A DNA stretch of 44,896 nucleotides from an uncultured Anaerolineales bacterium (GTDB lineage Bacteria; Chloroflexota; Anaerolineae; B4-G1), in assembly GCA_964412395.1 (NCBI GenBank), contig CAYPOY010000002.1:1-44896 (forward strand). The letters run 5' to 3'. The notes beneath the pieces are model-generated. The model did not search any database. It was not told the DNA's origin and saw nothing but the letters and a program-made list of their open reading frames with translations. The translations under genes were made by a program, and so were the position numbers. How positions within the stretch are numbered: the first letter of the stretch is position 1; each line of letters begins with the position of its first letter. Positions 1 through 39,900 of the stretch are shown in pieces.

Positions 1-2
1 AC

Positions 3-65
3 GAACTGGCACCCCTGTTCGACGCCGTGGTCGCCTCGGTCACCTTCTTCGAGCCCACCGAATAG
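3..65 (+). CDS. 3' end of an upstream gene running in from the window edge (…ELAPLFDAVVASVTFFEPTE*)
   Basis: Open frame from position 3 to TAG at 63-65 with GC3-rich codons. A short AT-rich spacer and the RBS of the next gene follow. Confidence 0.6.
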   Translation, partial: ELAPLFDAVVASVTFFEPTE

Positions 66-112
66 GTAGTCAACTTGTTATTTTCAGTTTCAGTTTTCAA
101 GGGAGGTTAACT

Positions 113-3100
113 ATGAAACGGAATGATGTCCCAGTACGCATTCTCCTCATCTGCGCATTGTTGTCAGGCGCGATCCAGATCTGCGCTGCGCCGGCCGTTG
201 AAGCTGACGCACCGGCAATCTCCACAGGAAGACAGAGAATTGAGCAAGAGCCTATAGCAGGCGAAGAAAACGCCATCGTCGCGCCCGTGCCCGTGATCGC
301 GGCAGATACCGGCAATGCGCCGGGCAGCACCACAGGCGCGCGCGAGTTTACGCAGACCTTCCTCGCCAGCAAGGACACCCACGTCGACAGCGTCGCGCCT
401 TCGATCCCGCAAGCCCCTTCGACGAACGGACGCCAATTCACGCAAACGATCTACGGCGGCAGTGATTCGTTCGTGTGCGCGCGCTCGCCGGACACCAATT
501 ACGGCGACGAGAACTATCTCCGCGTGGGCAGGCTAATTTCACCGCCAGAGGACTGCGAAATCCTGCTACGTTTCGACCTCACATCATTACCCGACAATGC
601 CGACGTGCTTACAGCCACGCTAGAACTGTACGCGGACACCGTATCTGGCGGCGTGCATGCCCACGCAGCCTTGAGCGGATGGAAAGAATCGCTGGTCACC
701 TGGAACAACAAACCAGCAAGATCTACCGAATCCGCACCCGCGACGTATTCTGGCGTGGGCTGGCAGCAGTGGGACGTGGAATACTTTGTCCAAGAGTGGA
801 TCACGGGCACACTCCACAACTTTGGCTTCTTGATGGCGCAGGACTACACCGTTTTCGGGCAAACCGACTACCAATCGTTTGCCGCGGGCAATACCTACCC
901 GCCTCGACTGGTTGTCACCTACCAGACAGAAGGCTCGCCGATGATGCTGCCGGTGGAGAAAGACACCTGGATCAACGAAGCGCTGCCCTCCACCAACTAC
1001 GGCAGCGATGACCACCTGCGCACCCGCTGCGACGGCGTCGGCACCGGCACGCGAGCCTACATTCTGTTGTGGTTCGACACGTCCTACCTACCGTCGAACA
1101 TCACCGTCGTCAGCGCAACGCTCGAACTGTACTCAATGATCAATCGCGCGCAGGATGCGGGACTCAACAAGCCGTTATTCTACGAAGACATCTTCCCGGA
1201 CACCATCCGGTCGAGTTGGGAGGAGATGTCGGTCACCTGGAACAGCAAACCGGTGGCTTACGGGGACGATCCACCCTCCCCCTACGACACCGGATGGATG
1301 CAGTGGGACGTCACCAACAGCGCCCAGGGATGGATTTCGGGCACGTTCACCAACTATGGCGTCCAGTTGCGCATCTACAACGACGTCGATCCTGCGGTCG
1401 TCGAATTTAGGGCCCGTCCCGGCGAGTTCGCGCCGCGACTGACCATCCACTACGACCCCCTGCCCCCCGTCTGCGACCCGCTGACGTCCGTCAGAATCAA
1501 TGGGCCGACAGCGGGCAATACCAGCACGGACTACGTCTTCGACGCGCAGGTCACCCCATACGATGCCACCGCCCCGTTCATCTACACGTGGACGGCGACC
1601 GACCAAAGCCCGGTCACCGTCGTCACCAGCGACACGACGCACAGCGTCCAGTTCAACTGGGCTTCGACAGGCACCAAAACGGTCAACGTCACCGTTGAGA
1701 ACTGCGGTGGGACTGCGAATGACACGCACCAAGTATCCATCGAACCGCCATCGCCCACGTGCCCGGTGCCGCTGACCGAACTCACGTTTTACGGGCCAAC
1801 GCAGGGCATAATTGGCGATGGATACACATTTAGGGCGACGACCGCCCCCAAGACGGCCACGCCCCCTGTCACCTTCACCTGGCAAGCCGACGGGCAAAGC
1901 CCGGTGACGGTATCGGGCACGGCGCTCCAGTCGTCGCAGGTCTACACCTGGAGCACGCTGGGCCCCAAGGCGATCACGGTAACCGCCGGAAACTGCGGCA
2001 GCGCCTTCGTCCAGTACCACACAATGGACATCGTGGAGCCAGAGGAGCTACCTGACCTTGACGTCACAACCGCGTGGTACGACTCAGAGGATCAGCGCAT
2101 CGGCTTCCTAATCAAGAACACCGGCGGGAGCATCGCGCCTGCAGGCCACTACGCTACCCTCGATCAGGGCGCAAGCGTGCTCAACGAGAATCTGTGGTTC
2201 CCACACGATCTGCAACCGGGCGCCATCCGCGAAGCCTTCTTCGACGTTGCGCGGACGTGCGCCAGCGATTCCGAGCCTATCAGGATTTGTGCCGATACCA
2301 CGGACCGCGTCGTCGAAGGGGACGAGACCAACAACTGCTGGCAACTCACCTGGCCCTGCGATATGGACCCACCGGCCATCATTTCCGGCCCGACGGTCGT
2401 GACAACCACCGAGAACACGGCCACCATCGCCTGGGAAACCAACGAACCGTGCAGTAGCGAGGTACTTTACGACAAAAGCAGCGTCTACTACAGAGATTCC
2501 AAAGTCACCAGTAGCTTCACGACCGATCACGAAGTCGTCCTCACGCATCTGGATGGCGAGAGTCTGTACCACTTTTACGTCCTCGTCACCGATATGTCCG
2601 GCACATCGGTCAACAGCGACGAAGCGTTCTTCGAGACGCAGGCGGCGGGCTTCGATCCGCCCATCATCACGCACCTGGACACGGTGATGTTCACGCACGA
2701 CTTCTACGATCTCTACGTCATCCAGACTTCGGTGGACGATATCGTTGGGTTGGACCGGATCGAGTTCTACTACAACGGCACGTTGATCAAAACCGAGTAC
2801 TTTTATCCGGGCCACGCGCTCAATGCCTACGCGATCTTTTCACCCTACGACCTGGGTTACACGCGCAGCTCGTTCTTCTCATCCGGGCACATGGCTACCG
2901 TGAAGGCTATCAACACAAACGGCGCGACGACGGAACAGAGCAAGCTGCACGCCCCTTCGACTACACCGAAATACGTTGACGTGTATATAATCACGCCACC
3001 GCAAAACCACACCCTCTACGTGGATGGCGACCCCACCCCCGCCGGCACCACCATCGACGTGATGGTGGAGGCCGCGCAGTTCGAGTGGGGATGCACCTGG

Positions 3101-6100
3101 TCCGGGTACGCGGGAGGGCTGTCCCCCGAAGTCGCGCCGGTCTTCTGCGCCGATGTGGACCAGGCAGCGGACGAGATCGAGCTGCTGCTGGACGGCGTGG
3201 TGGTTGACAGCTACACCCCCGCTTGCGGCGAGTTCGACCACACCTTCACCCTGGACCTTGCGGGCGAGGACCTCGGCACGCACACCGTTGAGGTGGTGGC
3301 CCACGCCAACGACGGGACCACCAACAGCCAACAGCGCACCATCACCATAGCGCAGGGCACGCCAAGCCTCAGTCTGCAAAGGATGGTCTCGCGCGTCGAT
3401 AACTACTTCGAGGTCGTGCTGACGCTCGAGAATCACGCCAACGCGACGTGGAACGCGGATATCGACAGACTCTTCGACAATACGCAGGGGTTCCAGGCCA
3501 TCGCAAAGGGGACGCAACAACCCGGCCTGCTAGCACCCACTGCCGAATGTCAGTATTACACCGTCGATCCCTTCTCCCATAACGGAAGTAGCTTCGTCGA
3601 CTTTGGTAGTGGGATCACCCTGGCACCGGGGGAATCCTGTACCGTTTCTTATTCCGTCGTGCCGGTGTTGCGCGAATATCCAATAGACTACGACATCGGC
3701 GGTACAGGCACCCTCGTCCACTATAACGGCGTTGGAGAAACACTCTTTGCCGCCAGTGGCAACTTGAATAGCGAAGTCGCGGCTGCGTTCAAACAATCGG
3801 ACTACCTCATCGTAACCAACCCCGGGCGACTGGTGGGGCACTATTCTGGCGCCGATGCACTGCTCTCGGAGATGGCGAAACTCGCGAAAATCAAACGCGG
3901 GGCATTGGGGTATCTCGATTCCTACAACGACAAGCAAGTCCTCGACAACCTGGTCGAACCGAGTGGCTACTGGACCACGTCGATGTATGACGACTTCAAG
4001 TCGATCAGAAAGGGCTATATGCTCATCGTCGGGGAAACGGAGATCGTCGGCGCGTGGAACTACACCGGTCTCGACACAGACTGGGAGGATAGCAACGTTG
4101 ACTACGTCTATCACAGTGACCACGATTACGCCAACACCAAAGGCGACGGCGCGCCCGATCTGATCGTCGGTCGCATCATCGGCAACAATCCCGACGAGTT
4201 GCTTAACGCCATCCGCACCAGTATCAACATGACGGTTGGCGCGTGGGAAATGGACCGCTCGCACGCGCTGCTGGTCAGCGGGCGCGGAAAGAGCGTCAAT
4301 AAATTCCGTAGCAACGTCAACAGCCTGGAAGACGATCTACTCAACGACGGAATGGACGTGACCAAACTGCACTGGCGCGACTATCGCTTCCTCTCATCCT
4401 TCGCGCTGGCCTTCCGAGAGTACGACGGATTCGCCGCCGGAGACGTCATCGCCGGGGGGAAAGCCGAGATGGTCGTCGCCAAGCGCACGGGAGATCACTT
4501 TTACGTCCTCGACGCTTATGGCACCGTCGTCAGCACCTTCGACCGCACCTTCGACGAAGGCGACGTCCTCGCCGTAGGCGACGTGGGTTGGGATGACGCA
4601 GCCGAAATCATCATCGGCGACTTTAGCGACGGCAACATCTACATCTACGATTTCGACGGCGGTGCCGCGCTGGGCAACTTTGCTTGCGGCTTCAGTGCAT
4701 TTGACGGACTGACGACGGGCTACGTCAAACACACGGGCAAGGATCAGATCATCTTCGCCGACGCTTCTGCGAACCACATCACCGTCTACAGCCAATATGG
4801 CACATCCCTGCTGGATTTCCCCGCGACCTTCGACACACACAATGGCCTGGCAGCGGGCAACGTGATGACGGGCACCGGCGAGACCACCCGCGATGAAATC
4901 CTGGTCGGCCACGATGACACGATCTACATCTACGACGATGCCGATGGCAGTCTGCTCACCTCCTTCTCCGTCGATCACAACTTTGTAGCCGGGGATCGCC
5001 TGGCTTCCGGCGACGTCCGCGCCACCCCGTCCGGCGCGCCTGTACCCTACCCGCCGGACGAGATCGTCATCGGCGACCGGGACGACAGAGTCTACATCTA
5101 CAACTGGAAAGGCGTCAGGCTGAACGACATCCACGTTGGCGACTTTGAATACTACGACGGTCTGGCCGTCGCGGACGTGACCGGCGACGGCGAAGAAGAG
5201 GTCCTAATGGCCGACCTGGACGACTATATCCACATCATTGATGCCTATTACCCGCGTTCAGCAACGGAAGCATTCAAAGCAAACACATCCGGTCAGGACA
5301 TGATCTACTTCAGCGGACACGGGGGCACAAGTTCGTGGAGTCCAGCCCTGAGCACTGGGGATTTCCCGCTCAACTTCAACAACACCAAACCCTTCGTCTT
5401 CGCGCCTTCCTGTCACACGGGCAACTATGAAGGCAACAACGACAACAGCCTTGCCGAAGCCTTCCTCAACAACGACGCTGCCGTCTACATCGGGGCGACC
5501 GAAATTTCCTCGATCAAGAAGAACGTCGCGATGGGCATCAAGTTCTTCGACCACTGGAACACGAACGAATCCATCGGCTCGACGTTGACGCAAATCGAAC
5601 GCCAGGTCTGGGACAACAACGACTGGTACACCGATATGTGGGAGATGTGGGTCTACGAATACAACCTCTACGGCGATCCCAAGATCGGCACGGATGGCAC
5701 GGTGCTGCCGACATCCAGCCAGTCGCAGACTATGGCACCTGACGCACCCGTCGCGACGCGCGACTTCCACGTCCCGATGTACGAGGTGACCGTCATCGAC
5801 GGAAACGACCACGTAGAGATCCCCGGCGGATCGAACATCATCGCCCAGGGCCACTACGCCGTGCCCTACTGGACCGCGTCCATCAACTACCGGCCCGGCA
5901 CCGTCGTCCAGGACGTCGTCCTGGTGAGTCGCTCCGGACTGACGGTGACCACCGGCCTGAGCATGCCGCTCACGACCATCGACCACGAGTGCGCCGCGTG
6001 TGTGACTAGCAGCGCAGCGGCATCCGCCGTGGCGGAAGATGCCTGGTTCCCGGAGCTCGAAGCCACCCACCACTGGTCGGTGACCGAGGGGGAGAATGGC

Positions 6101-6883
6101 AGCGTCTTCCTGACCATTGCGATGTACCCCTTCTTCTACAACCCCGCCACCACCGACGTGCGCTTCTACCAGGACTTCACCTTCGACATTGAGACGATCT
6201 CCACCGCCGTGAGCCTGCAATCGGTCGACACCGACCAGACCACCTACGTACCGGGCGATAGTGTGTCGGTGACGCTGGTCATCAGCAACGCGGGGATCGC
6301 GCAGGATGTCATCGTCGAAGCGACCATCAAGGCGCATCCCAACACGACCGTCGCCGGGCTGCCGCTGCGCAACCTCCATGACCTCAGCGGCTTGGCCGTG
6401 GCGACCTTCGAATGGGACTCCACCGGCGTCCCGGATGGCGACTACTTCGTCGAGATCAAGCTGCGCAACGCCGGTGGCGACGTCCTCGACCTGGAAATGC
6501 AGGAGTTCACGCTGGGCATCACCGGCGGCGAGGTCACGGCGCTCACCGCCACACCGGCAGCGTTCACTATCGGCGACGCCATCGCCATCACCATGACGTT
6601 CGAGAACACCGGCACCGTGCCCATCACCGGCACCGCCGTCATCCAGGTGCGCCCGGCGGACGCGGTCACCGTCACCGCCGAGTTCACGCACACAATCGCC
6701 AACCTGGCTCCCGGTGCATCCGTCGTCTTCAACGACGCCTGGGATACCACTGGCGCAACGGAAGACGCCTACCGCATCCTGGGTTACGTCAAGTTCAACA
6801 GCATGGCCTCCGCGCCGAAGGAAGTGATGGTCGCGGTGCAGACGCAGGTCGAGGTCTATCTGCCGCTGGTGCTGCGGGAGTAG
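113..6883 (+). CDS. Giant secreted multidomain C25 (gingipain-like) cysteine peptidase: signal peptide, 2x DNRLRE-like, 2x PKD, CARDB, FN3/Ig-like, C25 catalytic domain split by FG-GAP-like repeats, propeptide_C25-like, Ig/CARDB, C-terminal YLPLVLRE
   Basis: RBS GGAGG at ~102-106 and an N-terminal hydrophobic signal. DNRLRE-like repeats: 'PDTNYG…LLRFDL…SATLELY…VTWN…PRL'. C25 hallmarks: DYLIVT, YMLIVGE, SDHDYA…PDLIVGRI, FSGHG (His 5318-5320), PSCHTG (Cys 5411-5413), YIGAT and YNLYGDP. Repeated 'LAxGDV…DEIxxGD…IYIYD' units lie between GRI and GHG. Confidence 0.85.
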   Translation: MKRNDVPVRILLICALLSGAIQICAAPAVEADAPAISTGRQRIEQEPIAGEENAIVAPVPVIAADTGNAPGSTTGAREFTQTFLASKDTHVDSVAPSIPQAPSTNGRQFTQTIYGGSDSFVCARSPDTNYGDENYLRVGRLISPPEDCEILLRFDLTSLPDNADVLTATLELYADTVSGGVHAHAALSGWKESLVTWNNKPARSTESAPATYSGVGWQQWDVEYFVQEWITGTLHNFGFLMAQDYTVFGQTDYQSFAAGNTYPPRLVVTYQTEGSPMMLPVEKDTWINEALPSTNYGSDDHLRTRCDGVGTGTRAYILLWFDTSYLPSNITVVSATLELYSMINRAQDAGLNKPLFYEDIFPDTIRSSWEEMSVTWNSKPVAYGDDPPSPYDTGWMQWDVTNSAQGWISGTFTNYGVQLRIYNDVDPAVVEFRARPGEFAPRLTIHYDPLPPVCDPLTSVRINGPTAGNTSTDYVFDAQVTPYDATAPFIYTWTATDQSPVTVVTSDTTHSVQFNWASTGTKTVNVTVENCGGTANDTHQVSIEPPSPTCPVPLTELTFYGPTQGIIGDGYTFRATTAPKTATPPVTFTWQADGQSPVTVSGTALQSSQVYTWSTLGPKAITVTAGNCGSAFVQYHTMDIVEPEELPDLDVTTAWYDSEDQRIGFLIKNTGGSIAPAGHYATLDQGASVLNENLWFPHDLQPGAIREAFFDVARTCASDSEPIRICADTTDRVVEGDETNNCWQLTWPCDMDPPAIISGPTVVTTTENTATIAWETNEPCSSEVLYDKSSVYYRDSKVTSSFTTDHEVVLTHLDGESLYHFYVLVTDMSGTSVNSDEAFFETQAAGFDPPIITHLDTVMFTHDFYDLYVIQTSVDDIVGLDRIEFYYNGTLIKTEYFYPGHALNAYAIFSPYDLGYTRSSFFSSGHMATVKAINTNGATTEQSKLHAPSTTPKYVDVYIITPPQNHTLYVDGDPTPAGTTIDVMVEAAQFEWGCTWSGYAGGLSPEVAPVFCADVDQAADEIELLLDGVVVDSYTPACGEFDHTFTLDLAGEDLGTHTVEVVAHANDGTTNSQQRTITIAQGTPSLSLQRMVSRVDNYFEVVLTLENHANATWNADIDRLFDNTQGFQAIAKGTQQPGLLAPTAECQYYTVDPFSHNGSSFVDFGSGITLAPGESCTVSYSVVPVLREYPIDYDIGGTGTLVHYNGVGETLFAASGNLNSEVAAAFKQSDYLIVTNPGRLVGHYSGADALLSEMAKLAKIKRGALGYLDSYNDKQVLDNLVEPSGYWTTSMYDDFKSIRKGYMLIVGETEIVGAWNYTGLDTDWEDSNVDYVYHSDHDYANTKGDGAPDLIVGRIIGNNPDELLNAIRTSINMTVGAWEMDRSHALLVSGRGKSVNKFRSNVNSLEDDLLNDGMDVTKLHWRDYRFLSSFALAFREYDGFAAGDVIAGGKAEMVVAKRTGDHFYVLDAYGTVVSTFDRTFDEGDVLAVGDVGWDDAAEIIIGDFSDGNIYIYDFDGGAALGNFACGFSAFDGLTTGYVKHTGKDQIIFADASANHITVYSQYGTSLLDFPATFDTHNGLAAGNVMTGTGETTRDEILVGHDDTIYIYDDADGSLLTSFSVDHNFVAGDRLASGDVRATPSGAPVPYPPDEIVIGDRDDRVYIYNWKGVRLNDIHVGDFEYYDGLAVADVTGDGEEEVLMADLDDYIHIIDAYYPRSATEAFKANTSGQDMIYFSGHGGTSSWSPALSTGDFPLNFNNTKPFVFAPSCHTGNYEGNNDNSLAEAFLNNDAAVYIGATEISSIKKNVAMGIKFFDHWNTNESIGSTLTQIERQVWDNNDWYTDMWEMWVYEYNLYGDPKIGTDGTVLPTSSQSQTMAPDAPVATRDFHVPMYEVTVIDGNDHVEIPGGSNIIAQGHYAVPYWTASINYRPGTVVQDVVLVSRSGLTVTTGLSMPLTTIDHECAACVTSSAAASAVAEDAWFPELEATHHWSVTEGENGSVFLTIAMYPFFYNPATTDVRFYQDFTFDIETISTAVSLQSVDTDQTTYVPGDSVSVTLVISNAGIAQDVIVEATIKAHPNTTVAGLPLRNLHDLSGLAVATFEWDSTGVPDGDYFVEIKLRNAGGDVLDLEMQEFTLGITGGEVTALTATPAAFTIGDAIAITMTFENTGTVPITGTAVIQVRPADAVTVTAEFTHTIANLAPGASVVFNDAWDTTGATEDAYRILGYVKFNSMASAPKEVMVAVQTQVEVYLPLVLRE

Positions 6884-8297: not shown

Positions 8298-9779
8298 TTA
8301 TGCCGGCGCTGCCTTCACATAGATCGGGTTGCCCAGCGCCTTCGCCATCAGCGCGGCAGGCTCCTCGTCCAACGGGGCCTCTGGCGGCTCGATGACCTCC
8401 GCCCGCCAGTAGGTGTCACCGGTCACGACGACCTGGCACTCGTAGGCGAAGTCATCGCTGACGATGGGCGCCTCGTGGATTTCCTGCGCGGAGACGAGTC
8501 GCAGCAGGTTCCCCGCCCCGCCCTGTACCCGGCAGTGCAGGCGCAGGCTGGCACCGGGGGGCAGGCACAACTCATCGCCCATCGCGGCCCGCTGCCCACC
8601 GTGGATTCCCTCTGCGGTCAGTTCAAGTCGGGGCCCGGCCGGCCCCTCGGAGATAAAGACGTGCCCGGCGCGGAGGCCAGCGATGATGGCCTCCACTGAG
8701 AGCACATTGGCGTAGACCCAGGTACACGGCGTGCCGATCTCATACCAGCCCAGTTCACCCGTGAATGGCCCCTGGTGCTTGTCGGAGCCGCCCACAGCAG
8801 TGACCCGTTTCCCCTGGCGCAACTGCGCATCCCACACTGCCAACGACTGGTAGTTGGAGACAATCCACGGCGACCCCCAAACTTCGATGCAGTCGGGCTC
8901 GAACAGGTCACCGAATTCCCAGGGCGGGCCTCCCTCCTTGGGATGGTTGACCGAAAAGAGTGCGCCTCGCGCCCGCACCGCTTCCCGCACCCGCGCCATC
9001 TGATTGTCGGTCCAGCAGCGGAACTCGACGAAGCCGTCGGCCGGCCAGTCAACCGGCCAGACATTGGCGTGGCCGTGATAGGTGGTGACCTCGACGCCAG
9101 GGATAAGGAGCAGGTCGGGGGCAGCGTGTCCCGGCAGCAGCCCTTCGGCCTGGCTCAGGACAAGCGGCAGGTGGCTGATCGTGTTGTGCTCGGTGACGGA
9201 GGCGAAGTCGAGCCCCTGGGCGCGGGCTGCTGCCACCAGGTCCGCAAGCGGCGCGGAACCGTCGGAGTGCCAGGTGTGGGCATGCAAGTCACCCCGGTAC
9301 CAACGCGGGCCAGTCCCCGCATACTCCACTCCTGTGCCCCCCTGTTTCCTGCTTCCTGCCTCCTCCTTCCTGCCCCCTGCCTCCCGCCCCTCCAGCGTCA
9401 CAACGACCCGGTAATCGCAGCCCTCAGGAGCGAGTTGATAGAGACCCAGCACGACGTGCCAGGTGCCGGGTTGCACCAGGCCGGCGAGGTAGCCAGGCGT
9501 CGCCTCACCGGCGGCAATGGTGAATTCCTGCCGCGCTGTGCCGCTCCAGCCCCGGAACCCTTTCGCGGTCAGGAACTCGGCCCCACGGGGGTCGAAGAGA
9601 CCGATGTCCACGATGTTGCCCTCCTGCCAGCCCACCTTGTCTCCGCTGAGTTGGCGGCTGACCTGGTAGCGCACACAGAGCCGTGCGACCCCTGGCGGTA
9701 CCTCGAAAGACAGCAGCGGGAACTCGTCCACCGCCTTGTCCACGGCGTCGAAATGGCCTTCTAGCACGATGTCTGTCAT
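8298..9779 (-). CDS. PHP-domain metallohydrolase (CehA/McbA-like family)
   Basis: Motifs 'WYRGDLHAHTWHSDG', 'VTEHN', 'GVEVTTYHGHAN', 'NHP' and 'GGSDKH'. ATG at 9779 preceded by an RBS (GAAGGGAG) is preferred over the 9797 start. Confidence 0.9.
   Translation of the reverse strand: MTDIVLEGHFDAVDKAVDEFPLLSFEVPPGVARLCVRYQVSRQLSGDKVGWQEGNIVDIGLFDPRGAEFLTAKGFRGWSGTARQEFTIAAGEATPGYLAGLVQPGTWHVVLGLYQLAPEGCDYRVVVTLEGREAGGRKEEAGSRKQGGTGVEYAGTGPRWYRGDLHAHTWHSDGSAPLADLVAAARAQGLDFASVTEHNTISHLPLVLSQAEGLLPGHAAPDLLLIPGVEVTTYHGHANVWPVDWPADGFVEFRCWTDNQMARVREAVRARGALFSVNHPKEGGPPWEFGDLFEPDCIEVWGSPWIVSNYQSLAVWDAQLRQGKRVTAVGGSDKHQGPFTGELGWYEIGTPCTWVYANVLSVEAIIAGLRAGHVFISEGPAGPRLELTAEGIHGGQRAAMGDELCLPPGASLRLHCRVQGGAGNLLRLVSAQEIHEAPIVSDDFAYECQVVVTGDTYWRAEVIEPPEAPLDEEPAALMAKALGNPIYVKAAPA
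9341..9389. repeat. Seven degenerate heptamer repeats (CCTGCYT-like) in the coding linker (GREAGGRKEEAGSRKQG)
   Basis: Units cctgttt, cctgctt, cctgcct, cctcctt, cctgccc, cctgcct, cccgccc. Confidence 0.75.
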
Positions 9780-9818
9780 TAGCAACTCCCTTCTCACAGT
9801 CGTCGCTTAGCGACTGGC

Positions 9819-9867
9819 GTTCGTCATTCATCATTCGGCACTCGCCATTCGCTATTCTCTATTCGCC
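9819..9867. repeat. Seven degenerate heptamer repeats (ATTCGCC-like) in the 5' region of the PHP gene
   Basis: Units gttcgtc, attcatc, attcggc, actcgcc, attcgct, attctct, attcgcc. A small palindrome GTCGCT-T-AGCGAC lies next to them at 9802-9814. Confidence 0.75.
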
Positions 9868-9940
9868 ATCTGCAGATAAGGTATTCTCTCCATTCGGCCC
9901 GGCTTGTCAAGTCCCTTGTCCACAACTCCACAGCAGGCAT

Positions 9941-9969
9941 TTTGCTTTCCAGCGCTGTTGTGCTACACT
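9941..9969 (+). promoter_or_regulatory. Candidate sigma70-type promoter (extended -10 TGcTACACT) for the NACHT/TPR cluster
   Basis: TG-n-TACACT at 9961-9969 with a weak -35 (TTGCTT, 9942-9947), ~55 bp upstream of ATG 10025 (RBS AAGGAG). Confidence 0.4.
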
Positions 9970-10024
9970 ATCCGCTGCACGGTCGAGCAAGGAAGGATAG
10001 ATGTGATTCCTGAAGGAGCCTGCG

Positions 10025-10522
10025 ATGTCGCAAGAGGAGAAAGCCAACCTGGAAGGTTCCGGCGCGGTGACGCAGGGAGGCGGTGTTGCCGCCGGGGAAA
10101 GAGGTGTTGCCGCCCGCGAGATACACCGATCAACCGTTGTAACTGGCGACCGTAACGTCGTGACGGTCGTCTACCAGGGCGTGGACATCCCCATCCCCTC
10201 ACCCGATGCAGCAGCCCGCCACCGGGCGGCGCTGCGGAAGCAACTGGATGCCAGCGTCCGCAAACGCTGGGGCGGGATGTCAGCCTACATCCAGGAGGAG
10301 GGGGCAACGCTCCCCATCGAGGCCTCCCCCTACCAGACAGGGCGGCTGGGGCCGAGGGAAAACCTGCTGGGGCTGCTCCACACAGCCGACCGGCTCCTGG
10401 TGCTGGGGGAACCCGGCTCTGGCAAGACGGTGGCGCTGGAACGGCTGGCCTGGGAACTGTGCAACGGCTCTGAACCGGCCATCCCGGTGCTGGTGCCGCT
10501 GTTCTGCTACGACGGCACTTGA
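10025..10522 (+). pseudogene. 3'-truncated NACHT/STAND NTPase with an N-terminal Gly/Ala/Val-rich (amyloid-like) motif
   Basis: Walker A 'LLVLGEPGSGKT' and 'IPVLVPL' are typical of NACHT proteins. The ORF stops before Walker B and has no sensor repeats. N-terminal motif: LEGSGAVTQGGGVAAGERGVAAREIHRSTVVTGDRN. Confidence 0.8.
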
Positions 10523-10602
10523 CAGGCTCCGGCGCTATAGCCGTGGGGACCAGCGCAGTCGCGGCAGGGGCCGGCGGAGTGGCCGATCGTGCTCGCTTGT
10601 AG
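10519..10602 (+). pseudogene. Orphan gene 3' end encoding a further copy of the shared motif (LTGSGAIAVGTSAVAAGAGGVA…*)
   Basis: Not in the ORF track. The frame TTG ACA GGC TCC GGC GCT ATA GCC… TAG aligns codon by codon with the caspase C-terminal motif at 13851-13916. Confidence 0.7.
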
Positions 10603-10611
10603 GGAGAAACT

Positions 10612-12087
10612 GTGACTATGCCTGATAAAAACTCCAGTACGTCTACACAATCTGAGGAAACCCACCGCGAAGAAACTATCGTCAGTGATGTGAAAGATGC
10701 CGCAGTTGCGGTCGGGAAACAGGCCGCTGCTGCCACCAAAGGAGGCATTGCCATCAGTGGCAACGTCGGTGGGGATCTCGTCATCTCTGTCGGAAGCACC
10801 CAGGTTGCTATCCCACGTTTTGTGCAGATCGTGCTTGGCGTCATCGTGCTCGGTGTTCTCCTCTTGGTTGGGGCTCGAGCCTTCGATGCTTACAACGCCT
10901 CTCGTCCTACACCTATAGCACCAATGACGGGTGATTTCAACGTCGCTGTGGCCCAGTTCCAGGTTTATGGCGAGGGCGAGGAGGAATTTGAGGAAGCACA
11001 GGAGTTGGCGCTGGGACTTGCTAATGCTATCGAGCGAGAGATTGATGACCTGGCAGACGAGATTGATGACACCATCCAAATTCGATTTCCTCAAGAGACA
11101 AGAACCATTCAGGGCAGAACCGACGCGGGACGGGCGGAAAATGCCCGCGCACTAGCCGAGGAGATCAACGCCGATATTGTCATATACGGGGTGGTAGAGG
11201 TGAGTGGCCTCACTGCTGTAATCAGACCCGAGTTCTATATCGGCGATAGTGATTTTATGCTAGGCGCTGAGGTAACCGGCCAGTATCGAATGGGACGTGA
11301 GATACAACTGGACAAAATTGACAATAGAACTCTGAGGAATGACGTGGAAGAGATACTGAAGAAACGATTCCGCGTTCTGACCCTTCTAGTCAATGGTCTG
11401 TCTGATTATGTGGTCGGCGAGTACGGAGACGCCGAAACGAGTTTCAATAGAGCCCTGGAGATTGAGGCGTGGGACACCCCTGATGTCATCTACGTTTTGC
11501 TGGGCAACGCCACCATTCAACAGCACGAGTTAGAGAAGGCCAAGGAATACTTCTCAAAAGCTCTGGATGCAAATCCGGACTATGCGCGCGCCTACGCTGG
11601 GCTGGCGACTGTATTTCTCCAGCAGGCCACACCGGACATTCAGAGTGGAACCTATGACTTTGATGTTCAACTTCTTGATAAAGCCTTTGACCATTACCAG
11701 AAAGCTTTGAACAGCGAGGAGCAATCGCCCCTGGCCGACATTCCCACGAAAGTCAGTTTTGGCGTGGGGGATGTTTACATACGCAAAGCCCTGGTTGAAG
11801 AAGCGGCTGGCAATGACGAAGCAAAGGAACAATACTACAGCTTGGCCGGGCAGGCTTATCAATCTGTCATTCAGGATTACGAGGCAGGAAATGAACGGCT
11901 GCAGGAGATAGCCGCGCACGCACATGCTCGCCTAGGGTTGATTCTTGCTCAGAATGGTCAACTGGAGGCAGCTATTGCTGAGTATGAACAGGCGCTCAAT
12001 CTCCTACCCAAGTATGGTCAGAGTAAGGAGTACAGAGCTCTCTACCAGGAAATACTGGACGAACTCAGAGGAACAACTTCAGAATAA
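10612..12087 (+). CDS. Single-pass membrane TPR protein: N-terminal shared motif, TM helix, TolB-N/CsgG-like alpha/beta segment, TPR array
   Basis: Motif AAVAVGKQAAAATKGGIAISGNVGGDLVISVG (aa 30-61) and TM 'FVQIVLGVIVLGVLLLVGA'. Then 'FNVAVAQF…ADIVIYGVV' and TPRs 'AKEYFSKALDANPDYARAYAGLA' and 'AIAEYEQALNLLP'. Confidence 0.85.
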   Translation: MTMPDKNSSTSTQSEETHREETIVSDVKDAAVAVGKQAAAATKGGIAISGNVGGDLVISVGSTQVAIPRFVQIVLGVIVLGVLLLVGARAFDAYNASRPTPIAPMTGDFNVAVAQFQVYGEGEEEFEEAQELALGLANAIEREIDDLADEIDDTIQIRFPQETRTIQGRTDAGRAENARALAEEINADIVIYGVVEVSGLTAVIRPEFYIGDSDFMLGAEVTGQYRMGREIQLDKIDNRTLRNDVEEILKKRFRVLTLLVNGLSDYVVGEYGDAETSFNRALEIEAWDTPDVIYVLLGNATIQQHELEKAKEYFSKALDANPDYARAYAGLATVFLQQATPDIQSGTYDFDVQLLDKAFDHYQKALNSEEQSPLADIPTKVSFGVGDVYIRKALVEEAAGNDEAKEQYYSLAGQAYQSVIQDYEAGNERLQEIAAHAHARLGLILAQNGQLEAAIAEYEQALNLLPKYGQSKEYRALYQEILDELRGTTSE

Positions 12088-12099
12088 AGGAGGCATCAG

Positions 12100-12717
12100 A
12101 TGTCAAGACAGACTTTTCTAGCTGTTTGCATCATTGGGCTGGCGTTGGGACTCGTGCTGATTCACAGCGGTATCTCATCTGCCGCCCGAGCACTTGCTGT
12201 TCCCGGACCCAGCTCAGCGCCTGGCGCGATGTTGGGAAGCGTTGCCGGCACCGGCAAGGAGCCCGAGCCTGTTAGCGAGAATGTGCTTATTGCCACTCCA
12301 ACACCGACATGGAGACGGTACCACATCTATGGGCAAAGATCATATTACCTCATCATCAGGCAGCTTGCGTATACTATAACGGCCAGCGAGAACGATGTGT
12401 GGGAATTGATCAGCATGCCCATAGTACTGCTTGTATTACTCGCGATACAGATTCTGAGGACGTCAATCCTTGGCCGATTTGAGATCGAGACACCGATCTG
12501 GAAGCGACTTCTCAAATGGATCGTCATGTACGGTGTGACCATTACCGTTGCTTTCTGTTTCGCTCTTGGTTTGTGGCCCCTTGTGTTCCCGGTTGGATGG
12601 ACTGTGCTGGACACTGTGAGGCATCTCGTTTTCTGTCGCAGAGAGGGAATTCATCCGATCTATGCAACACCGAGAAAGAAACTCTACGAACTCAAGGGAT
12701 GGGAATGGCCAGAATAG
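12100..12717 (+). CDS. Hypothetical membrane protein (signal peptide + two TM helices)
   Basis: RBS AAGGAGG just after the TPR stop, an N-terminal hydrophobic signal and two further hydrophobic segments. Confidence 0.65.
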   Translation: MSRQTFLAVCIIGLALGLVLIHSGISSAARALAVPGPSSAPGAMLGSVAGTGKEPEPVSENVLIATPTPTWRRYHIYGQRSYYLIIRQLAYTITASENDVWELISMPIVLLVLLAIQILRTSILGRFEIETPIWKRLLKWIVMYGVTITVAFCFALGLWPLVFPVGWTVLDTVRHLVFCRREGIHPIYATPRKKLYELKGWEWPE

Positions 12718-12808
12718 TCAAGGGTGATGTCACCGTTGTCATCCGCGAGCAGTCCGTGGGCGCGTCCACTCTGGACTCTGAAACTCTGAGGCTCTGCCCC
12801 CTGGACGC

Positions 12809-12880
12809 GCCTGTCCTGAGCGTAACCGAGGGACGCAGTGCGGTCGCGAGCAAATTGTAGGACAAGTTGGCAACTTGTCC
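12809..12880. repeat. Intergenic REP cluster: inverted CCTTCG…GCTCAGGACAGGC-family unit and a GTAG-type REP (GTAG + GGACAAGTTG-G-CAACTTGTCC)
   Basis: 12809-12833 is GCCTGTCCTGAGCGTAACCGAGGGA. At 12857-12880 a GTAG tetranucleotide overlaps a perfect 10-bp palindrome. Short ACTCTG repeats lie at ~12769-12797. Confidence 0.7.
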
Positions 12881-12923
12881 CCAACACAAGGAAGGGTGCG
12901 CATATCATACGAAGGAGGTCAAC

Positions 12924-14051
12924 GTGACTGAGCAATTTGCGAACGGTTACGCACTACTCATTGGCGTAGACGAGAACTATGTGGACGGATGGGCTTTGCC
13001 AGACATGGCGAAGGACGTCGAAGCACTGAAAGCGGTACTTGCCCATCCCCAACGATGTGCTTATCCTGAGGACAACGTCAGAACGATCACGGGCCAGGAT
13101 GCCACCCGCCAGGGTATCCTGGACGGGCTGGAGTGGCTGCAAGAGCAGATCCAGGCCGACACCAGCGGCAATGCCACGGCCATCGTCTACTACACGGGAC
13201 ACGGTTGGTGCCAGGGGCAATCCGTACCGTCCGAGTTCTACCTTATCCCCTACGACGTGAGGGAAGGCAAGATCAGGTCACGCGCCCTGCGGGCCACAGA
13301 CTTCGCCGAAGCGGTGGGCGAACTGAAACCTCGCCGCCTGTTGGTGGTGCTCGACTGTTGCCACGCCGGCGGGATGGGTGTGAAAGGGTTGCCGCTGCCG
13401 GCCGGGTACATCGAGGCGGCCATAGCGCCCTCGCTGCTGATGGAGGGAGAGAAATCCGTCGGGCCAGGGGCAAAAGGACTGGAGACGTTGGCGTTGGGAA
13501 GTGGCCGCGCCGTGCTCAGTTCCTCGACCGGGGAGCAGAGTTCCTACATACGCCAGGATCGTAAGATGAGCATTTTCACCTATCACCTGATCGAGGCGCT
13601 CACCGGCCACGCGCAGCCGCAGGAGGGAGCGACCGAGGTGCTCGTCTCCGACGTGATGGGCCACGTCTGGCGGCGCGTGCCGCGGAGCGCCAGGGTCCTG
13701 GGAGTAGAGCAAGTACCGGATTTCCAGGTCAGCGGCAACTTTCCCGTCGCGCTGCTGCTGGGCGGCAAAGGTCTGAGCAAGGGACAGCCAGCGCCCGATC
13801 CACTGGAAACTCTCATTGCCACGACGCCCCGCCCCGTCTACCAGGCCACGTTGATGGGCAACGGCGCTATCGCCCAGGGTGAAGGAGCGGTGGCGGCAGG
13901 GGCGGGCGGGGTGGCCATCGGCGGCAGCGTGCAGGGCAGCGTCATCGTCACTGGCGATGGCACGGGAGCACCATCTGGGCTGTCGCCTGGCCTGGCGAAA
14001 GGAAGACGAAAGGAAAAAGGACAGATTGGGAGGTTTGGATTCGAAAGCTGA
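12924..14051 (+). CDS. Caspase-family (peptidase C14) protease with a C-terminal shared Gly/Ala/Val-rich motif
   Basis: 'YALLIGVD', catalytic 'YYTGHG' and 'LDCCHAG', 'GRAVLSSS…S…SIFTYHLIEAL', 'EQVP'. The start is GTG 12924 after RBS AAGGAGG. C-terminal motif: YQATLMGNGAIAQGEGAVAAGAGGVAIGGSVQGSVIVTGDG. Confidence 0.9.
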   Translation: MTEQFANGYALLIGVDENYVDGWALPDMAKDVEALKAVLAHPQRCAYPEDNVRTITGQDATRQGILDGLEWLQEQIQADTSGNATAIVYYTGHGWCQGQSVPSEFYLIPYDVREGKIRSRALRATDFAEAVGELKPRRLLVVLDCCHAGGMGVKGLPLPAGYIEAAIAPSLLMEGEKSVGPGAKGLETLALGSGRAVLSSSTGEQSSYIRQDRKMSIFTYHLIEALTGHAQPQEGATEVLVSDVMGHVWRRVPRSARVLGVEQVPDFQVSGNFPVALLLGGKGLSKGQPAPDPLETLIATTPRPVYQATLMGNGAIAQGEGAVAAGAGGVAIGGSVQGSVIVTGDGTGAPSGLSPGLAKGRRKEKGQIGRFGFES

Positions 14052-14189
14052 CGCCAGATGACCCGCATTTGGCACGCTTCATCCACCCCGTTGATGGGGA
14101 AGATAACCGGAAACCGGACTGCCGTTCGATCTGTCAATAGGAGTGGGCGCCTTGGGGAACGGGCTACTCTCAAAAACGAGGCGTCTACC

Positions 14190-14909
14190 TCAGTGATAGT
14201 ATGCTTGGGGCTGACCTCTTCCCTGCCCAACGCATTCCTCTGCTAGCCAGTAGTAGCCGTGATGCAGGCCACTCAGCACCGGGCGAGATGAGAGCTTCCC
14301 ATTGACCGGCGGTGTTTCTAACCGCTCTGGTCGGCATGGAATGCCCTGCTCAATGCCCTGGTGCGGTCGGGCACGGTTGAAGTAGGCCATATACTCCTTC
14401 ACCACTCGGTACAGATGCCGTTCGCTGAGAATCAGGATGAGGTCGAGGCACTCTAGTTCTCCGCGAATGCGCTCTACTCCCCAAGTGAGATTCTCCTTGA
14501 CTATTCGCTTGATCAACGCCACAATGTCGTCTATCAACGGCGGTCGGCCTTGCTTTCGCTTGGACTTGGACTTGTGCTTCCACACCCGCCGAAACAAGTC
14601 GCGATGCCAGCGCAAGACGGTGTCAGGCTGGACGATGACCAATGCTTGCCTCCACGTGCGCAACTTGCTTGCCCAAAGCACGAACAGCGCCCGGTCGCGC
14701 CAGGTGAGTTTCGGACGTTTGGTTTGGCGCTCAAGCACGATCAGTTGCTGACGCAGGAGAGCGTTTTCCAGCACCAGTTCCGACTTGCTGCGGGTCAGGT
14801 CCAGAGCTGTGTTCAGGATCAGAGTGTGATTGTTGGGTTTTGTCCATTGGCGGAAGCGCCGCTTGACAATCTGGCAGAGAAGCTGTACACTTTGTCGGAG
14901 AAAGCTCAT
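14190..14909 (-). mobile_element. Internally deleted integrase-core (rve-type DDE) transposase remnant
   Basis: The N-terminal part 'SELVLENALLRQQLIVL…QPDTVLRWHR…GRPP…ENLTWGVERIRGEL' is joined directly to the C-terminal part 'ECLD…YFNRARPHQGI…LSGLHHGY'. The catalytic core between them is missing (junction ~14453). A possible element end lies at ~14985-15008. Confidence 0.8.
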
Positions 14910-36965: not shown

Positions 36966-39900
36966 CTAGGCCTCAAGGGGCAGCCAGACGATTATGGTCG
37001 TGTCCCCCGAGCCGGGGGAACCTACATAAATGCGCCCACCTTAGGTTTGTAGAATGGTCAGGGCCATTAGTAATCCCATCCCCAACCTCTTGGACTCTTT
37101 AATTTGCTCTTTGAAGAGTCTGGGCAGTACGTCATCGGGAATTCCCTTGCCGGTATCGGTGAAGACGATCTCCACGCCACTATTCACCAATCGGGTAGAA
37201 ATGATGAGTTGCTTATCAATAGTCCCCACCATTGCCTCGACTGCATTGTCCACAAGAATGTCAACGACTCGGCGCAACCACTCTGGGCTAGCTTTGACAG
37301 TCACTGCATCGTCCAGCTCAAAGTCAAATCTGTGACGCCCCGACTTGTATGGTTCATTCTCCCACAGCTGACTGATCCGTTCCCGTAACAATCTGTTGAC
37401 AGACACTGATTCCACACCTTCCTCTTCAGAAAGCGGTGGTGTAATCGGCCTCGCCAGAATCTTCTGGGCCTGCCGCTCAATCTTAGCCAGCCGTTCGTGC
37501 ACATTCTTGCTTACCTTTGCTCTGCGCAAATCGGAGCGAAGGAGCCCGATCTCATCCCGAATGGTTATGGCACGCCCTTCTACGGCGTGTCGCCAGGCGC
37601 TGCTGGCCATTCCCATCCAGGCCAGGGCCGTGCTCGCTCCAACGAGCCCCTTTGTTTGTTTCAACTCCTCATACATTTGCTTCAATTCTTCGTACAGATG
37701 GGCATTCTCAATAACCACTGCTGCCTGACCAGCAAAGATGTGCAACAGCCGAGCGTCATCCTCACTGAATGATCTCCCGTCACGTCTGTTGGAAGCCTGG
37801 ATGACGCCGATGTTCCGATTGCCTGCCGTCAGCTTGACTAACAAAGTGTCGCGTAGGCCTGCCTCTTCGGCCAGTTCTTTCAGTCCCAACTCGGCTACTA
37901 AGGGGTACTGCTCAACGCCATTGATAATCAGGTGGTCCTGCGTCTCCCAGACGATACCCGCAGGGCTACCTTGACCTGCGGGAATGCAATACCGTCGGCC
38001 AATTTCATCCGGCACGCCATACATCGGTAACTGGCAAACCAGAGCCTCTTCTGACTTATCATAAAGAAGGATCGCGCACATTTGAGCGCCTACCAACTGT
38101 GCTATGCTCTCGTTAACCTGCTGGTATACCTCATGGATGCTGACCAGCGAACGAATACTCTGTGAAACGCTGTTCAGACCCTCAAGCTCCTTGACTCGCT
38201 GCTGTTCCGCCTGGTATAGACGCGCATTTTTGATGGCAATGGCCGCCTGGGCGGCCAGGGATTCCAGGCAAAGCCGATCACTTTCGTCAAAGGCATTGGC
38301 ATCCGAGTGCTCTACGTTGATCACGCCGATCATCTCTTCCTCAAGCTTGATCGGCACGGCCAGTTCCGAACGGGTTTCCGAGTCATACTCGATGTAGTCT
38401 GGATATTGAGTTACATCATCTACCAGTTGGGACTGCCCAGTCTTGACAGCCCATCCTGTCACACCGATATGCTCGTCTTGTTTCAGGTCGATGTCACCCA
38501 CTCCCCTTTGCAGGCCAGACAAATGCTCCGGTGGATATGCTGCTTCGAAACTCAGCCTGTTTCTCTCCACTAACGCAAGATGGCTGAAACGAGCCCGCTT
38601 ACCGTGAGCGCCCGTGATCCGGCACGCTTGCTCCACGATGCGGTCAAGAATCTCATCCGGGGCCAAAGTGCTGGTCACTGCCTTGCCAGCTTCGTAGAGG
38701 ATTTGCAAAGCGGTGGCTCTCCTTATCGTCTCCTCGTATAGCTGAGCATTGCGGATAGCCACAGCGGCTTGGTAGGCGAAGAGCTCAATGTTAGTGAGTT
38801 CCTCGCCTGTAAAGCGATGGCGGGAACGGTAATTAACGAATATCACTCCGACTTTGCGGTCGCCGACCTTGAGTGGAATACTTACCGACGACTTTACGTC
38901 TTCCCGCCTGACAAAAGCGCCGCTCACTACTGGATCAGATGGGGCATCTTCAGCCACATACGCTCCGTCGAGTGCTAGAATTCTTCGGATCACTGATTCT
39001 CTCACTACCAAGCCAAACTTAAGTACTTCCCCCGTATCTCGCACACCAACCATTGCCGGAGGAAACTCAAATTCATCCCTGATCTGATCATAGGTATAGA
39101 GGGTGACAGCGTCACAGTCAAGAGCATCTTGAGTACCTCCCGCAATCGAGTTCAGGGTGCTCCGCAGGTCCTCCAGCACGCTCACTTCGGCCACGACCCT
39201 TGCAGTGTCACGCGCTTTGCTCACCTGCTCCAGTAACCTGGCTTTCTTAAGGGCCAGGGTTGCTTGATAGGCGAAGGTCTCCAGTGTCCTTCTGCCCTCA
39301 TCTGTGAAACTCCGAGGACGATTGTAATTCACATACAGCACACCGAGCTTCTCATCGCCTATTCTCAACGCTATTCCCTGGAAGCTCTTTGCACCAATGC
39401 TGTCCAGAAGCTCCAAGGTTAAGGGGCCCATGAAGTCATATTGTGGATCAGAGACATCTGTGACCCCTATCCAACCCTGATCCATCACCGTGTCAGCAGT
39501 CCCCCCTTTCTTGGGCTCTCTCTTCCGAAATCTCTCCAGTTCATCTCTATGGATACCATATGCCACTAGTTCTTCTGGGATGAATTGATTACGAATGTTA
39601 TCATAGGACCAGATTGCTGAGGAGTCTGCCTGCAATACCTCCTTAGCACCTTCCACGATCTGTTGCAGGACTTGCTGCAGGTCAAGAGCCCCAGCCATGG
39701 CCTCAGCGGCCTTGCGCATCTGCTCCAGCTTTCGTATTCGCTGGGCTTTGTCGTAGGCAACAGCGGCTTGGTTGGCATAGATCTGCAACGCTGTCTTTTC
39801 CGCTTCTGAAAAGAGACGGGGTGCTGTATGGTGGATCCATAACACACCAATGTTCTTCCCTCCATACCCAAGTGGCAAGCACGCCGCGGCCTTGACACCC

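Follow-up and report, generated by a model that had tools for sequence, protein, structure and literature searches.

In a 44,896-nt stretch of DNA from an uncultured Anaerolineales bacterium (B4-G1; assembly GCA_964412395.1, contig CAYPOY010000002.1), called the window below and always meant at its full length, we characterized a gene for a predicted membrane receptor whose N-terminal segment carries a short motif that recurs in the C-terminal tail of a caspase-like protease encoded downstream. We consider it rather probable that this protein is a single-pass transmembrane (TM) receptor with its N-terminus in the cytoplasm, distinct from the NOD-like receptors (NLRs), and that it is coupled to the caspase through a pair of motifs of the amyloid-signalling type, similar to those known as bacterial amyloid signalling sequences (BASS).

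An earlier note on this DNA, made from the sequence alone, had described an N-terminal motif segment lacking a signal peptide, followed by one TM helix, an alpha/beta domain and tetratricopeptide repeats (TPRs), and had concluded that the protein is not an NLR. Sequence, Pfam and a structure model all bear out this anatomy, and those parts of the note's interpretation that lent themselves to computation were likewise supported. The gene, which is single-copy in its own genome, probably starts at the ATG at 10618 rather than at the upstream GTG, giving a protein of 489 amino acids, and this shorter form is also the one found as a protein database entry (P0001). Residues 1–27 are hydrophilic and acidic and contain no hydrophobic signal-like stretch. 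The motif that follows is poor in Asn and Gln, and the sole strongly hydrophobic segment of the protein lies at residues 70–88 (mean Kyte-Doolittle 2.79), which makes the receptor a predicted single-pass protein that lacks a cleavable signal peptide. An AlphaFold2 model derived from 18 homologues (mean pLDDT 81.4, pTM 0.74) has a disordered N-terminus, with low-confidence beta strands in the motif at residues 47–50, 56–60 and 63–67; it is followed by a long helix (69–96), an alpha/beta domain (109–233) and helical repeats (239–486). The repeats matched TPR_1 (E 1.5e-13) and TPR_2 (E 3.3e-13) in Pfam. When all 491 residues were searched against Pfam and NCBIfam, TPR families alone were returned and no NTPase or P-loop domain was present, in agreement with the classification as a non-NLR protein. 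The motif matched no family in Pfam or NCBIfam, and the alpha/beta domain matched none in Pfam.

A Foldseek search with the full-length receptor model returned TPR proteins only. The alpha/beta domain was also modelled on its own for fold searches (pLDDT 85.1), and with this isolated domain VIA-align gave the FlgT ring (8z5n, Z 8.0), PelC (6.8) and GNA1162 (6.7). Superposition of TolB (1c5k) on the domain model covered 103 residues with a Z of 7.8 and a root-mean-square deviation (rmsd) of 3.0, and that of LpoB (4q6l) covered 102 residues with a Z of 7.4 and an rmsd of 3.1, both in the middling range of the tool. Foldseek found TolB (4r40) at an E-value of 7.4e-4, and a profile of the domain searched against the PDB found LpoB at a marginal 0.32. 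These middling scores agree across methods, and the best structural matches of the juxtamembrane domain are the periplasmic alpha/beta domains of LpoB, PelC, FlgT and the TolB N-terminus. Sequence similarity to them is marginal; the likeness of fold is a tentative one, and no equivalence of function is claimed.

The match between receptor and caspase was strong. Receptor residues 1–68 aligned with the last 75 residues of the caspase at a local score of 71, compared with 30.5 ± 5.2 for composition-preserving shuffles, none of which reached 71 in 2000 trials (z 7.7); the part that aligns is residues 28–63. We also built a motif profile from which all receptor sequences were left out, using the caspase tails, the N-terminus of a truncated NACHT gene nearby, a relic of a caspase tail just upstream of the receptor, and a fifth copy on contig C288. 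The receptor's N-terminus scored 22.8 bits with this profile, while 500 shuffles averaged 0.6 and did not exceed 8.0. That the segment is mere low-complexity Gly/Ala/Val sequence, which formed part of one outcome that the earlier note had named as refuting its reading, is rejected on these two results. A predicted complex of receptor residues 20–69 with the last 75 residues of the caspase (score 0.02, mark 0.32) speaks neither for nor against binding.

When a motif profile was run on 75,074 six-frame open reading frames (ORFs) of the 5.3-Mb genome, four copies were found within 4 kb in this cluster, in the NACHT fragment, the relic, the receptor and the caspase, and a single weaker one outside it (C288, E 8.5e-4). 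Of the four, the receptor's has diverged most, as had been noted from the sequence: its direct similarity to the NACHT copy is not significant (877 of 2000 shuffles reach the score), whereas the caspase tail matches both the NACHT copy (z 8.8) and the relic (z 7.8) strongly. Against the 25-residue relic (10525–10599), the receptor's score is reached by 1 of 2000 shuffles. The fifth copy stands at the N-terminus of a helical protein of ~198 residues (C288:1827–2495, minus strand), whose gene is preceded by a large P-loop/TPR ORF and followed by ORFs that by eye resemble SbcD and SbcC.

Homologues keep the motif, as the earlier note had wanted to see. Seven of them (P0002, P0003, P0004, P0041, P0045, L027 and P0138) beat 500 of 500 shuffles with the receptor-free profile; the motif is retained in homologues of other genomes at 40–76% identity, and one carrier, L027, is a 43% identical relative from another family. 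The closest homologue, 72% identical, lies at L003, the one locus returned by a scan of genome contigs with the single protein. Here a caspase that ends in the motif is followed after 16 nt by a receptor that starts with it, and then by a homologue of the small membrane protein encoded next to the window's receptor. In comparison with L003, the motif is the best conserved segment of the receptor (82% identity, compared with 40% for the preceding 27 residues). The ratio of nonsynonymous to synonymous substitution rates (dN/dS) is 0.11 for the whole receptor gene, 0.39 for the membrane protein and 0.26 for the C-terminal part of the caspase; judged by this ratio, the receptor and its motif are under purifying selection. 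The L003 caspase lacks the 27-residue tail that follows the motif in the window's caspase.

Pairing of this kind is not confined to one motif. At 10 of the 13 loci with a readable neighbour, the segment preceding the TM helix matched the C-terminal 60 residues of the adjacent gene's product (z 6.4–17.5, 0 of 1000 shuffles each). The matches belong to four unrelated motif classes, and receptor-tail scores were 49–96 within a class and 15–40 across classes. Each class thus matches its own partners only, and the expectation that homologues would neighbour motif-bearing effectors held. The paired effectors are caspases in the window and L003, a short CHAT-like protein in L019 and, in L009, L013–L015, L017, L018 and L024, helical proteins of 130–165 residues with a hydrophobic N-terminal helix, encoded 5’ of the receptor. 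In Pfam these helical partners gave only a sub-threshold match to HetE-N (E 0.029); their look-alikes in a protein atlas fall in cyanobacterial clusters in which 12–24% of the members have HetE-N, a domain for which a literature search returned nothing relevant. Possibly, they are Bell-like membrane-damaging effectors. Caspase homologues in the same taxonomic class (L056–L084) end in the window's motif, in other motifs, in helical tails or in segments that by eye are of the EAD7 type (EAD, effector-associated domain), and two of those with another motif have a matched downstream partner (L072, z 13.0; L078, z 15.2). Some caspase homologues in this set are fused to very large proteins, with open frames of 1079–3049 residues. 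A motif shared by the tail of an effector and the head of a receptor, in adjacent genes and with ‘all-in-one’ relatives, is the pattern that defines BASS in the text of bioRxiv 10.1101/2020.01.06.895854.

The scaffold itself is widespread. In a set of 1.84 billion proteins, the alpha/beta domain (161 residues) matched 665 cluster representatives at E≤1e-3, of which 175 remained at E≤1e-10. Among the 149 best representatives, 13 are fragments in which the domain starts at or before residue 40, and these were left out of domain counts. In 131 of the other 136, a hydrophobic segment lies within 60 residues before the domain, and 27 of 29 genome loci of the same taxonomic class have a single such segment directly before it. 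Of 401 sampled genomes of the class, 66 match the domain plus first TPRs at E≤1e-6, some of them with the TPR part only. We split the 136 representatives into a long-N set, with more than 170 residues before the TM helix, and a short-N set, with 41–170 (68 proteins each). The Pfam domains of the long-N set are CHAT (20), TIR_2 (11), Trypsin_2 (3), Pkinase (2), Peptidase_C14 (1) and SMEK_N (1), and the genome loci of the family added fusions to nSTAND1 (E 1.6e-122 in L042), EAD1, EAD7, EAD8 and CHAT. In the short-N set, EAD7 was present in eight proteins and the other 60 had no Pfam match apart from TPRs; in many short N-termini, a segment rich in Gly, Val, Ile and Asn leads up to the TM helix. 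As judged from these alignments and domain matches, it is only the part before the TM helix that varies, with effectors either fused (‘all-in-one’) or linked through an adaptor or motif.

Two kinds of fusion deserve separate mention. In L050, EAD7 is followed by a long Gly/Val/Asn-rich segment before the TM helix, which indicates that the EAD and Gly-rich kinds of adaptor can be combined. In L042, L051 and L052, an nSTAND1 NTPase is N-terminal to the TM, alpha/beta and TPR module, and these would be NLR-like proteins with a repeat ‘sensor’ predicted to lie outside the membrane. STAND proteins carry C-terminal sensors, and since the module stands at the corresponding position in the nSTAND1 fusions, a sensing role for it is supported.

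The gene directly 3’ of the receptor was inspected at 42 loci, 40 of which have a downstream ORF (window, L003–L052). A signal-like stretch was found in 36 of these 40 and a lipobox-like match in 29, although a few of the picks are probably spurious ORFs. By BLAST the exported products fall into several unrelated sequence clusters, which indicates that position and export signal are conserved rather than sequence. Pfam searches with 10 of them were mostly blank, with SH3_3 in one, an F5/8-type-C-like domain in another and a sub-threshold match to LGFP. These proteins may be co-sensors or baits.

The N-in orientation proposed in the earlier note, with the motif in the cytoplasm and the TPRs outside, is indirectly supported by cytoplasmic domains fused at the N-terminus, periplasmic fold matches, an exported product of the downstream gene (36 of 40) and basic loops in variants with two TM helices. 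The motif's position is occupied in homologues by CHAT, TIR, trypsin-like, caspase, kinase or nSTAND1 ATPase domains, and as an N-terminal ATPase, an NAD+-consuming TIR domain and CHAT need the cytoplasm, these fusions argue for an N-terminus inside the cell. An N-terminal signal-like stretch is lacking in 65 of the 68 long-N representatives. In four variants with two TM helices (P0077, P0124, P0139 and P0162), a strongly basic loop stands just before the helix next to the domain, which by the positive-inside rule places the domain outside. We also considered a periplasmic CHAT domain in the fused relatives, as in DdvA, and rejected it on the same count of 65 in 68 proteins.

The feature coordinates are collected in the table below.

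Table. Features of the receptor and of its neighbourhood in the window.
Feature	Position	Strand	Description
Truncated STAND/NACHT gene	10025–10522	+	165 codons; N-terminal motif ~10040–10165, Walker A region, then stop
Caspase C-tail relic	10525–10602	+	25 codons + TAG; in receptor frame, immediately 5’ of receptor
Receptor gene	10612–12087	+	491 aa from GTG 10612
Signalling motif	10693–10809	+	Receptor residues ~28–66, ~40 residues, Gly/Ala/Val/Ile-rich; predicted cytoplasmic
Single TM helix	10816–10899	+	Residues 69–96 in model; hydrophobic core 70–88
Alpha/beta domain	10924–11310	+	Residues ~105–233; probable LpoB/TolB-N-like fold; predicted extracytoplasmic
TPR region	11326–12069	+	Residues 239–486; Pfam TPR families, modelled helical repeats, Foldseek TPR matches; predicted extracytoplasmic
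205-aa membrane protein	12100–12717	+	12 nt 3’ of receptor; N-terminal signal or anchor and C-terminal hydrophobic helices
Caspase-like protease (Peptidase_C14)	12924–14051	+	C-terminal motif ~13848–13973; 206 nt after membrane-protein gene
Transposase fragment	14190–14909	-	Weak HTH_32 and rve_3 matches below cut-offs; borders cluster

The caspase probably starts at the GTG at 12924, behind an AGGAGG. It matches Peptidase_C14 (E 3.7e-17) and scores 93.5 bits with the NCBIfam model ‘caspase, EACC1-associated type’, under the cut-off of 140; the TGHG and DCCHAG motifs contain what we take to be its candidate catalytic His/Cys dyad. The 205-aa membrane protein belongs to no Pfam family and has only three homologues in 5.8 billion clusters, but it recurs as the receptor's partner at the nearest homologous loci. 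One of these (P0191) is from a 2276-bp contig, and the receptor homologue P0002 is likewise from a 2276-bp contig.

The two elements upstream of the receptor seem to record an earlier state of the locus. The truncated NACHT gene gave weak, sub-threshold P-loop/NACHT matches in Pfam and a motif profile match at E 4e-15. Its residues 50–165 are 76% identical to a full-length ORF of 1019 aa on contig C172, a paralogue that by eye appears nuclease-like, NACHT and FGE-like in succession; the remainder of the window's NACHT gene was not found in the genome, and the fragment has the look of a second, now defunct receptor for that caspase. The relic reads GSGAIAVGTSAVAAGAGGVADRARL and then stops. It matches the caspase tail with a z of 7.8 (0 of 2000 shuffles) and an E-value of 1.2e-5 with a profile that does not contain it, and at the DNA level it shares 79% identity over 62 nt with the caspase gene's 3’ end. 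As it occupies the place that the end of the caspase gene has in L003, it marks where a caspase gene once ended. A deletion appears to have removed the rest of the NLR and most of a caspase, leaving codon 165 of NACHT fused to the final 25 caspase codons, and we infer an ancestral order of NLR, caspase, receptor and membrane protein. This order agrees with genome G151, where an NLR is directly upstream of a caspase with the same motif. An intact caspase gene now lies downstream, beside the transposase fragment.

The G151 locus (L086, G151:C38, 4353–8471, minus strand) has a 1003-residue ORF that begins with two hydrophobic helices, followed by a Gly-rich segment; inspected by eye, it is of the NACHT type and its C-terminus resembles FGE-sulfatase, and it is directly upstream of a caspase that ends in the window's motif class. 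In the window, a promoter and terminator scan of 9700–14300 gave nothing above shuffles. Further downstream, 15224–36538 (minus strand) is a run of defence or conflict genes, with an SNF2-type helicase (1243 aa), DUF1156, DUF499 and ASCH/DUF7680 proteins, a response regulator that combines TCAD9 with a winged-helix output, and a receiver protein that contains CyanoTRADDas_TM. Large ORFs are found at 2–6883 and 37041–42614.

How might such a receptor work? The ectodomain, composed of the LpoB/TolB-N-like domain and the TPR array, probably works with the exported membrane protein whose gene starts 12 nt after the receptor's own, and together they would report an event in the envelope. This event would alter the oligomeric state of the receptor and bring its beta-prone juxtamembrane motifs together. 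Through homotypic, probably amyloid-like assembly, these would template or capture the tails of the caspase, which would then be activated through induced proximity. In this scheme a transmembrane sensor would take the place of the usual cytoplasmic NLR.

Several observations weigh against this reading of the locus. Amyloid formation by this motif class is a prediction, and the composition of the motif, rich in Gly, Ala, Val and Ile, is poor in Asn and Gln. The class is rare in the family (7 of 136 representatives). There was no match between tail and N-terminus at three of the 13 loci (L006, L008 and L023), and since L013, L014 and L015 are close kin, the matches amount to four independent classes and not to ten independent loci. 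With respect to topology, the positive-inside rule is not decisive for the window's protein, which has one Lys or Arg before the TM helix and two after it, nor for 16 family members taken together (36 before, 29 after), and at a lenient threshold 15 of the 68 long-N representatives have a further hydrophobic segment. The fold scores (Z 6.4–8.0) are middling by the tool's own scale. Receptor and caspase genes are not neighbours in the window: the caspase gene follows after 836 nt, and the membrane-protein gene separates the two. Signs of decay are present at the locus, in the form of the truncated NACHT gene, the relic tail and the transposase fragment, and as the same caspase motif has an NLR partner in G151, the truncated NACHT protein may have been the main receptor.

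Other explanations were weighed as well. One that we consider unlikely, but not to be dismissed lightly, is that the motif is a plain homotypic adaptor, equivalent to an EAD, which pairs beta strands into a small oligomer; the wiring would be the same, with no amyloid or prion-like templating. EAD1, EAD7 and EAD8 do take the motif's position in relatives, in L050 EAD7 even precedes a Gly-rich segment, and the scarcity of Asn and Gln and the low confidence of the modelled strands would suit such an adaptor. On the other hand, the length and position of the motif, the adjacency of the genes and the class-specific matching are the criteria by which BASS are defined, and several BASS motifs formed fibrils, as given in the text of bioRxiv 10.1101/2020.01.06.895854. 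More doubtful still is a role as tether or brake, in which the receptor's motif would keep the tail of the caspase at the membrane, either to localise it or to inhibit it as a decoy, and another receptor, originally the NACHT protein, would do the triggering. The NACHT motif is closer to that of the caspase (z 8.8) than the receptor's motif is (z 7.7), G151 has its NLR directly upstream of the caspase, and viral RHIM decoys are known in animals (as described in the text of PMC13506858). A decoy is hard to square, however, with the CHAT, TIR and trypsin-like effectors that relatives carry fused to the same TM-sensor module. Caspase and receptor are adjacent in L003, on a contig too short to exclude an upstream NLR.

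Two further explanations dispense with signalling at this locus. The functions of LpoB and TolB lie in the cell wall and the envelope, and the receptor could in principle be an envelope-biogenesis or scaffold protein whose resemblance to the caspase tail arose by local recombination; the rearranged locus, with a relic tail directly 5’ of the receptor and in the same frame, would provide for that. We give this very little credence, and it is already disfavoured by the retention of the motif in other genomes under purifying selection, by the unrelated motif classes that match their own neighbours on the same scaffold, and by the N-terminal fusions, which are effectors and adaptors of conflict systems. 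It is hardly credible, finally, that the window's copy is a decaying, non-functional remnant. The truncated NACHT gene, the relic tail, the transposase fragment and the extra 27 residues after the motif of the window's caspase, missing in L003, all point in that direction, but the frames of receptor, membrane protein and caspase are intact, their dN/dS values against L003 are 0.11, 0.39 and 0.26, respectively, and the candidate catalytic His and Cys are seen in the caspase sequence.

If the coupling of a membrane-spanning receptor to the caspase is correct, it may have a wider meaning. We propose, tentatively and as something short of likely, that the TM, LpoB-like and TPR module with its exported partner represents a widespread class of outward-looking immune or cell-death receptors of filamentous Chloroflexi, which would fire cytoplasmic effectors either directly or, at the membrane's inner face, through amyloid-like templating. 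Candidate events to be sensed would be phage attack, wall damage or contact with non-kin, and candidate effectors would be the caspase, CHAT, TIR and pore-forming helical proteins. Known prokaryotic amyloid signalling starts from soluble cytoplasmic receptors, namely NLRs and Agp of E. coli. An outward-facing receptor with a linked exported partner would extend this mode of signalling across the membrane, and it would be the first receptor of prokaryotic amyloid signalling to be membrane-spanning. The cues that trigger amyloid-signalling systems are largely unknown and are named as the main gap in the text of PMC7889193; a defined, small pair of ectodomain and partner would offer a place to seek one. 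Finally, a single scaffold that bears fused effectors, EAD adaptors or any of four motif classes would be a natural experiment on how motif specificity is encoded.

The closest framework for the motif pair is that of the BASS systems. As described in the text of bioRxiv 10.1101/2020.01.06.895854, in these an effector ends in a short beta-prone motif with which the adjacent receptor begins, and the occurrence of CHAT, TIR and other effectors either fused to the NLR or linked to it by the motif was used there as an argument for amyloid signalling by NLRs. The window's system shares with BASS effector/NLR pairs, and with fungal HET-S/NWD2, the placement of the motif, the fused-or-linked effectors and the pair-specific motif families, and like BASS systems it comes from a lineage, the Chloroflexi, counted among the multicellular or filamentous ones in which these occur. 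It differs in that its receptor lacks NB-ARC or NACHT and would, by prediction, cross the membrane and expose its repeats on the outside, and in that its effector is a Peptidase_C14 protein. The likeness of the motif to BASS is one of arrangement, as seen in the sequence.

The receptor that is most similar in its non-NLR design is Agp of the antiphage Bab/Agp system of E. coli (bioRxiv 10.1101/2024.11.07.622273), a TPR protein with an N-terminal amyloid motif, BASS11, that matches the C-terminal tail of the adjacent effector, as here. BASS11 is also reported there with CHAT, TIR and EAD7. The Bab effector is a small helical membrane-damaging protein, unlike the window's caspase, and we found no mention of a transmembrane receptor in the text of that preprint, although its figures may differ. 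The earlier claim that a transmembrane receptor extends the NLR-based paradigm therefore stands for the membrane-spanning design, which is new, but not for the absence of a NOD domain, already described with Agp; the other new element is that the arrangement can be generalised to a family rather than a single receptor. The bacterial pairs that we found in the text of a 2021 and a 2026 review are Bell/NLR only (PMC7889193, PMC13506858), and we found no literature description of a TM, LpoB-like and TPR receptor with a motif pair, although figures or supplements may list such architectures.

Recruitment of caspase-type effectors by small homotypic adaptors is also a property of the conflict systems of multicellular prokaryotes described by the Aravind group, with EAD adaptors and membrane-associated caspase systems (EACC1/EACC2); some of the caspase proteins there have TM helices and the extracellular sensor domains CHASE2 or PBP (PMC7159879, PMC8195603). 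EAD1, EAD7 and EAD8 occur on the scaffold of the window's receptor itself. The window's adaptor is a short beta motif, unlike the helical EAD, and no component of EACC1/EACC2 accompanies it: Pfam and NCBIfam gave no EACC1-like family among the neighbouring proteins, and the caspase falls below the cut-off of the EACC1-associated model. We found no description of the TM, LpoB-like and TPR module in the text of the two papers, although their supplements may differ. The idea of conflict modules that look outward across the membrane is shared with targets diversified by diversity-generating retroelements (DGRs), for which periplasm-facing sensors have been proposed where the targets have TM regions (text of PMC10907252). 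DdvA, a transmembrane anti-sigma factor with a periplasmic TPR-CHAT domain (PMC11506125), likewise faces outward and combines TPRs with a caspase-like domain; its CHAT domain is outside and its output is a sigma factor, whereas the window's protease would be inside and recruited by a motif.

For the proposed outside-in logic, the closest analogues are found in animals. PGRP-LC itself spans the membrane and has its motif on the cytoplasmic side. In Drosophila PGRP-LC/PGRP-LE–Imd signalling, which uses the cRHIM, and in the membrane-bound shrimp receptor SRB2, a pattern-recognition receptor employs a short amyloid-forming motif to engage a downstream adaptor, as described in the text of PMC13506858. 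The domains and motifs of these animal proteins are unrelated to those of the window, and their output is transcriptional, through Imd, rather than direct recruitment of a caspase. If our reading is correct, the window's system would be a bacterial counterpart of death-receptor or PGRP-LC/Imd signalling, and the parallel between bacterial conflict systems and the receptor-to-caspase pathways of animals would be strengthened. Altogether, the comparison suggests that bacteria, too, may have wired an outward-facing sensor to a cell-death enzyme, in a manner akin to some animal immune receptors.

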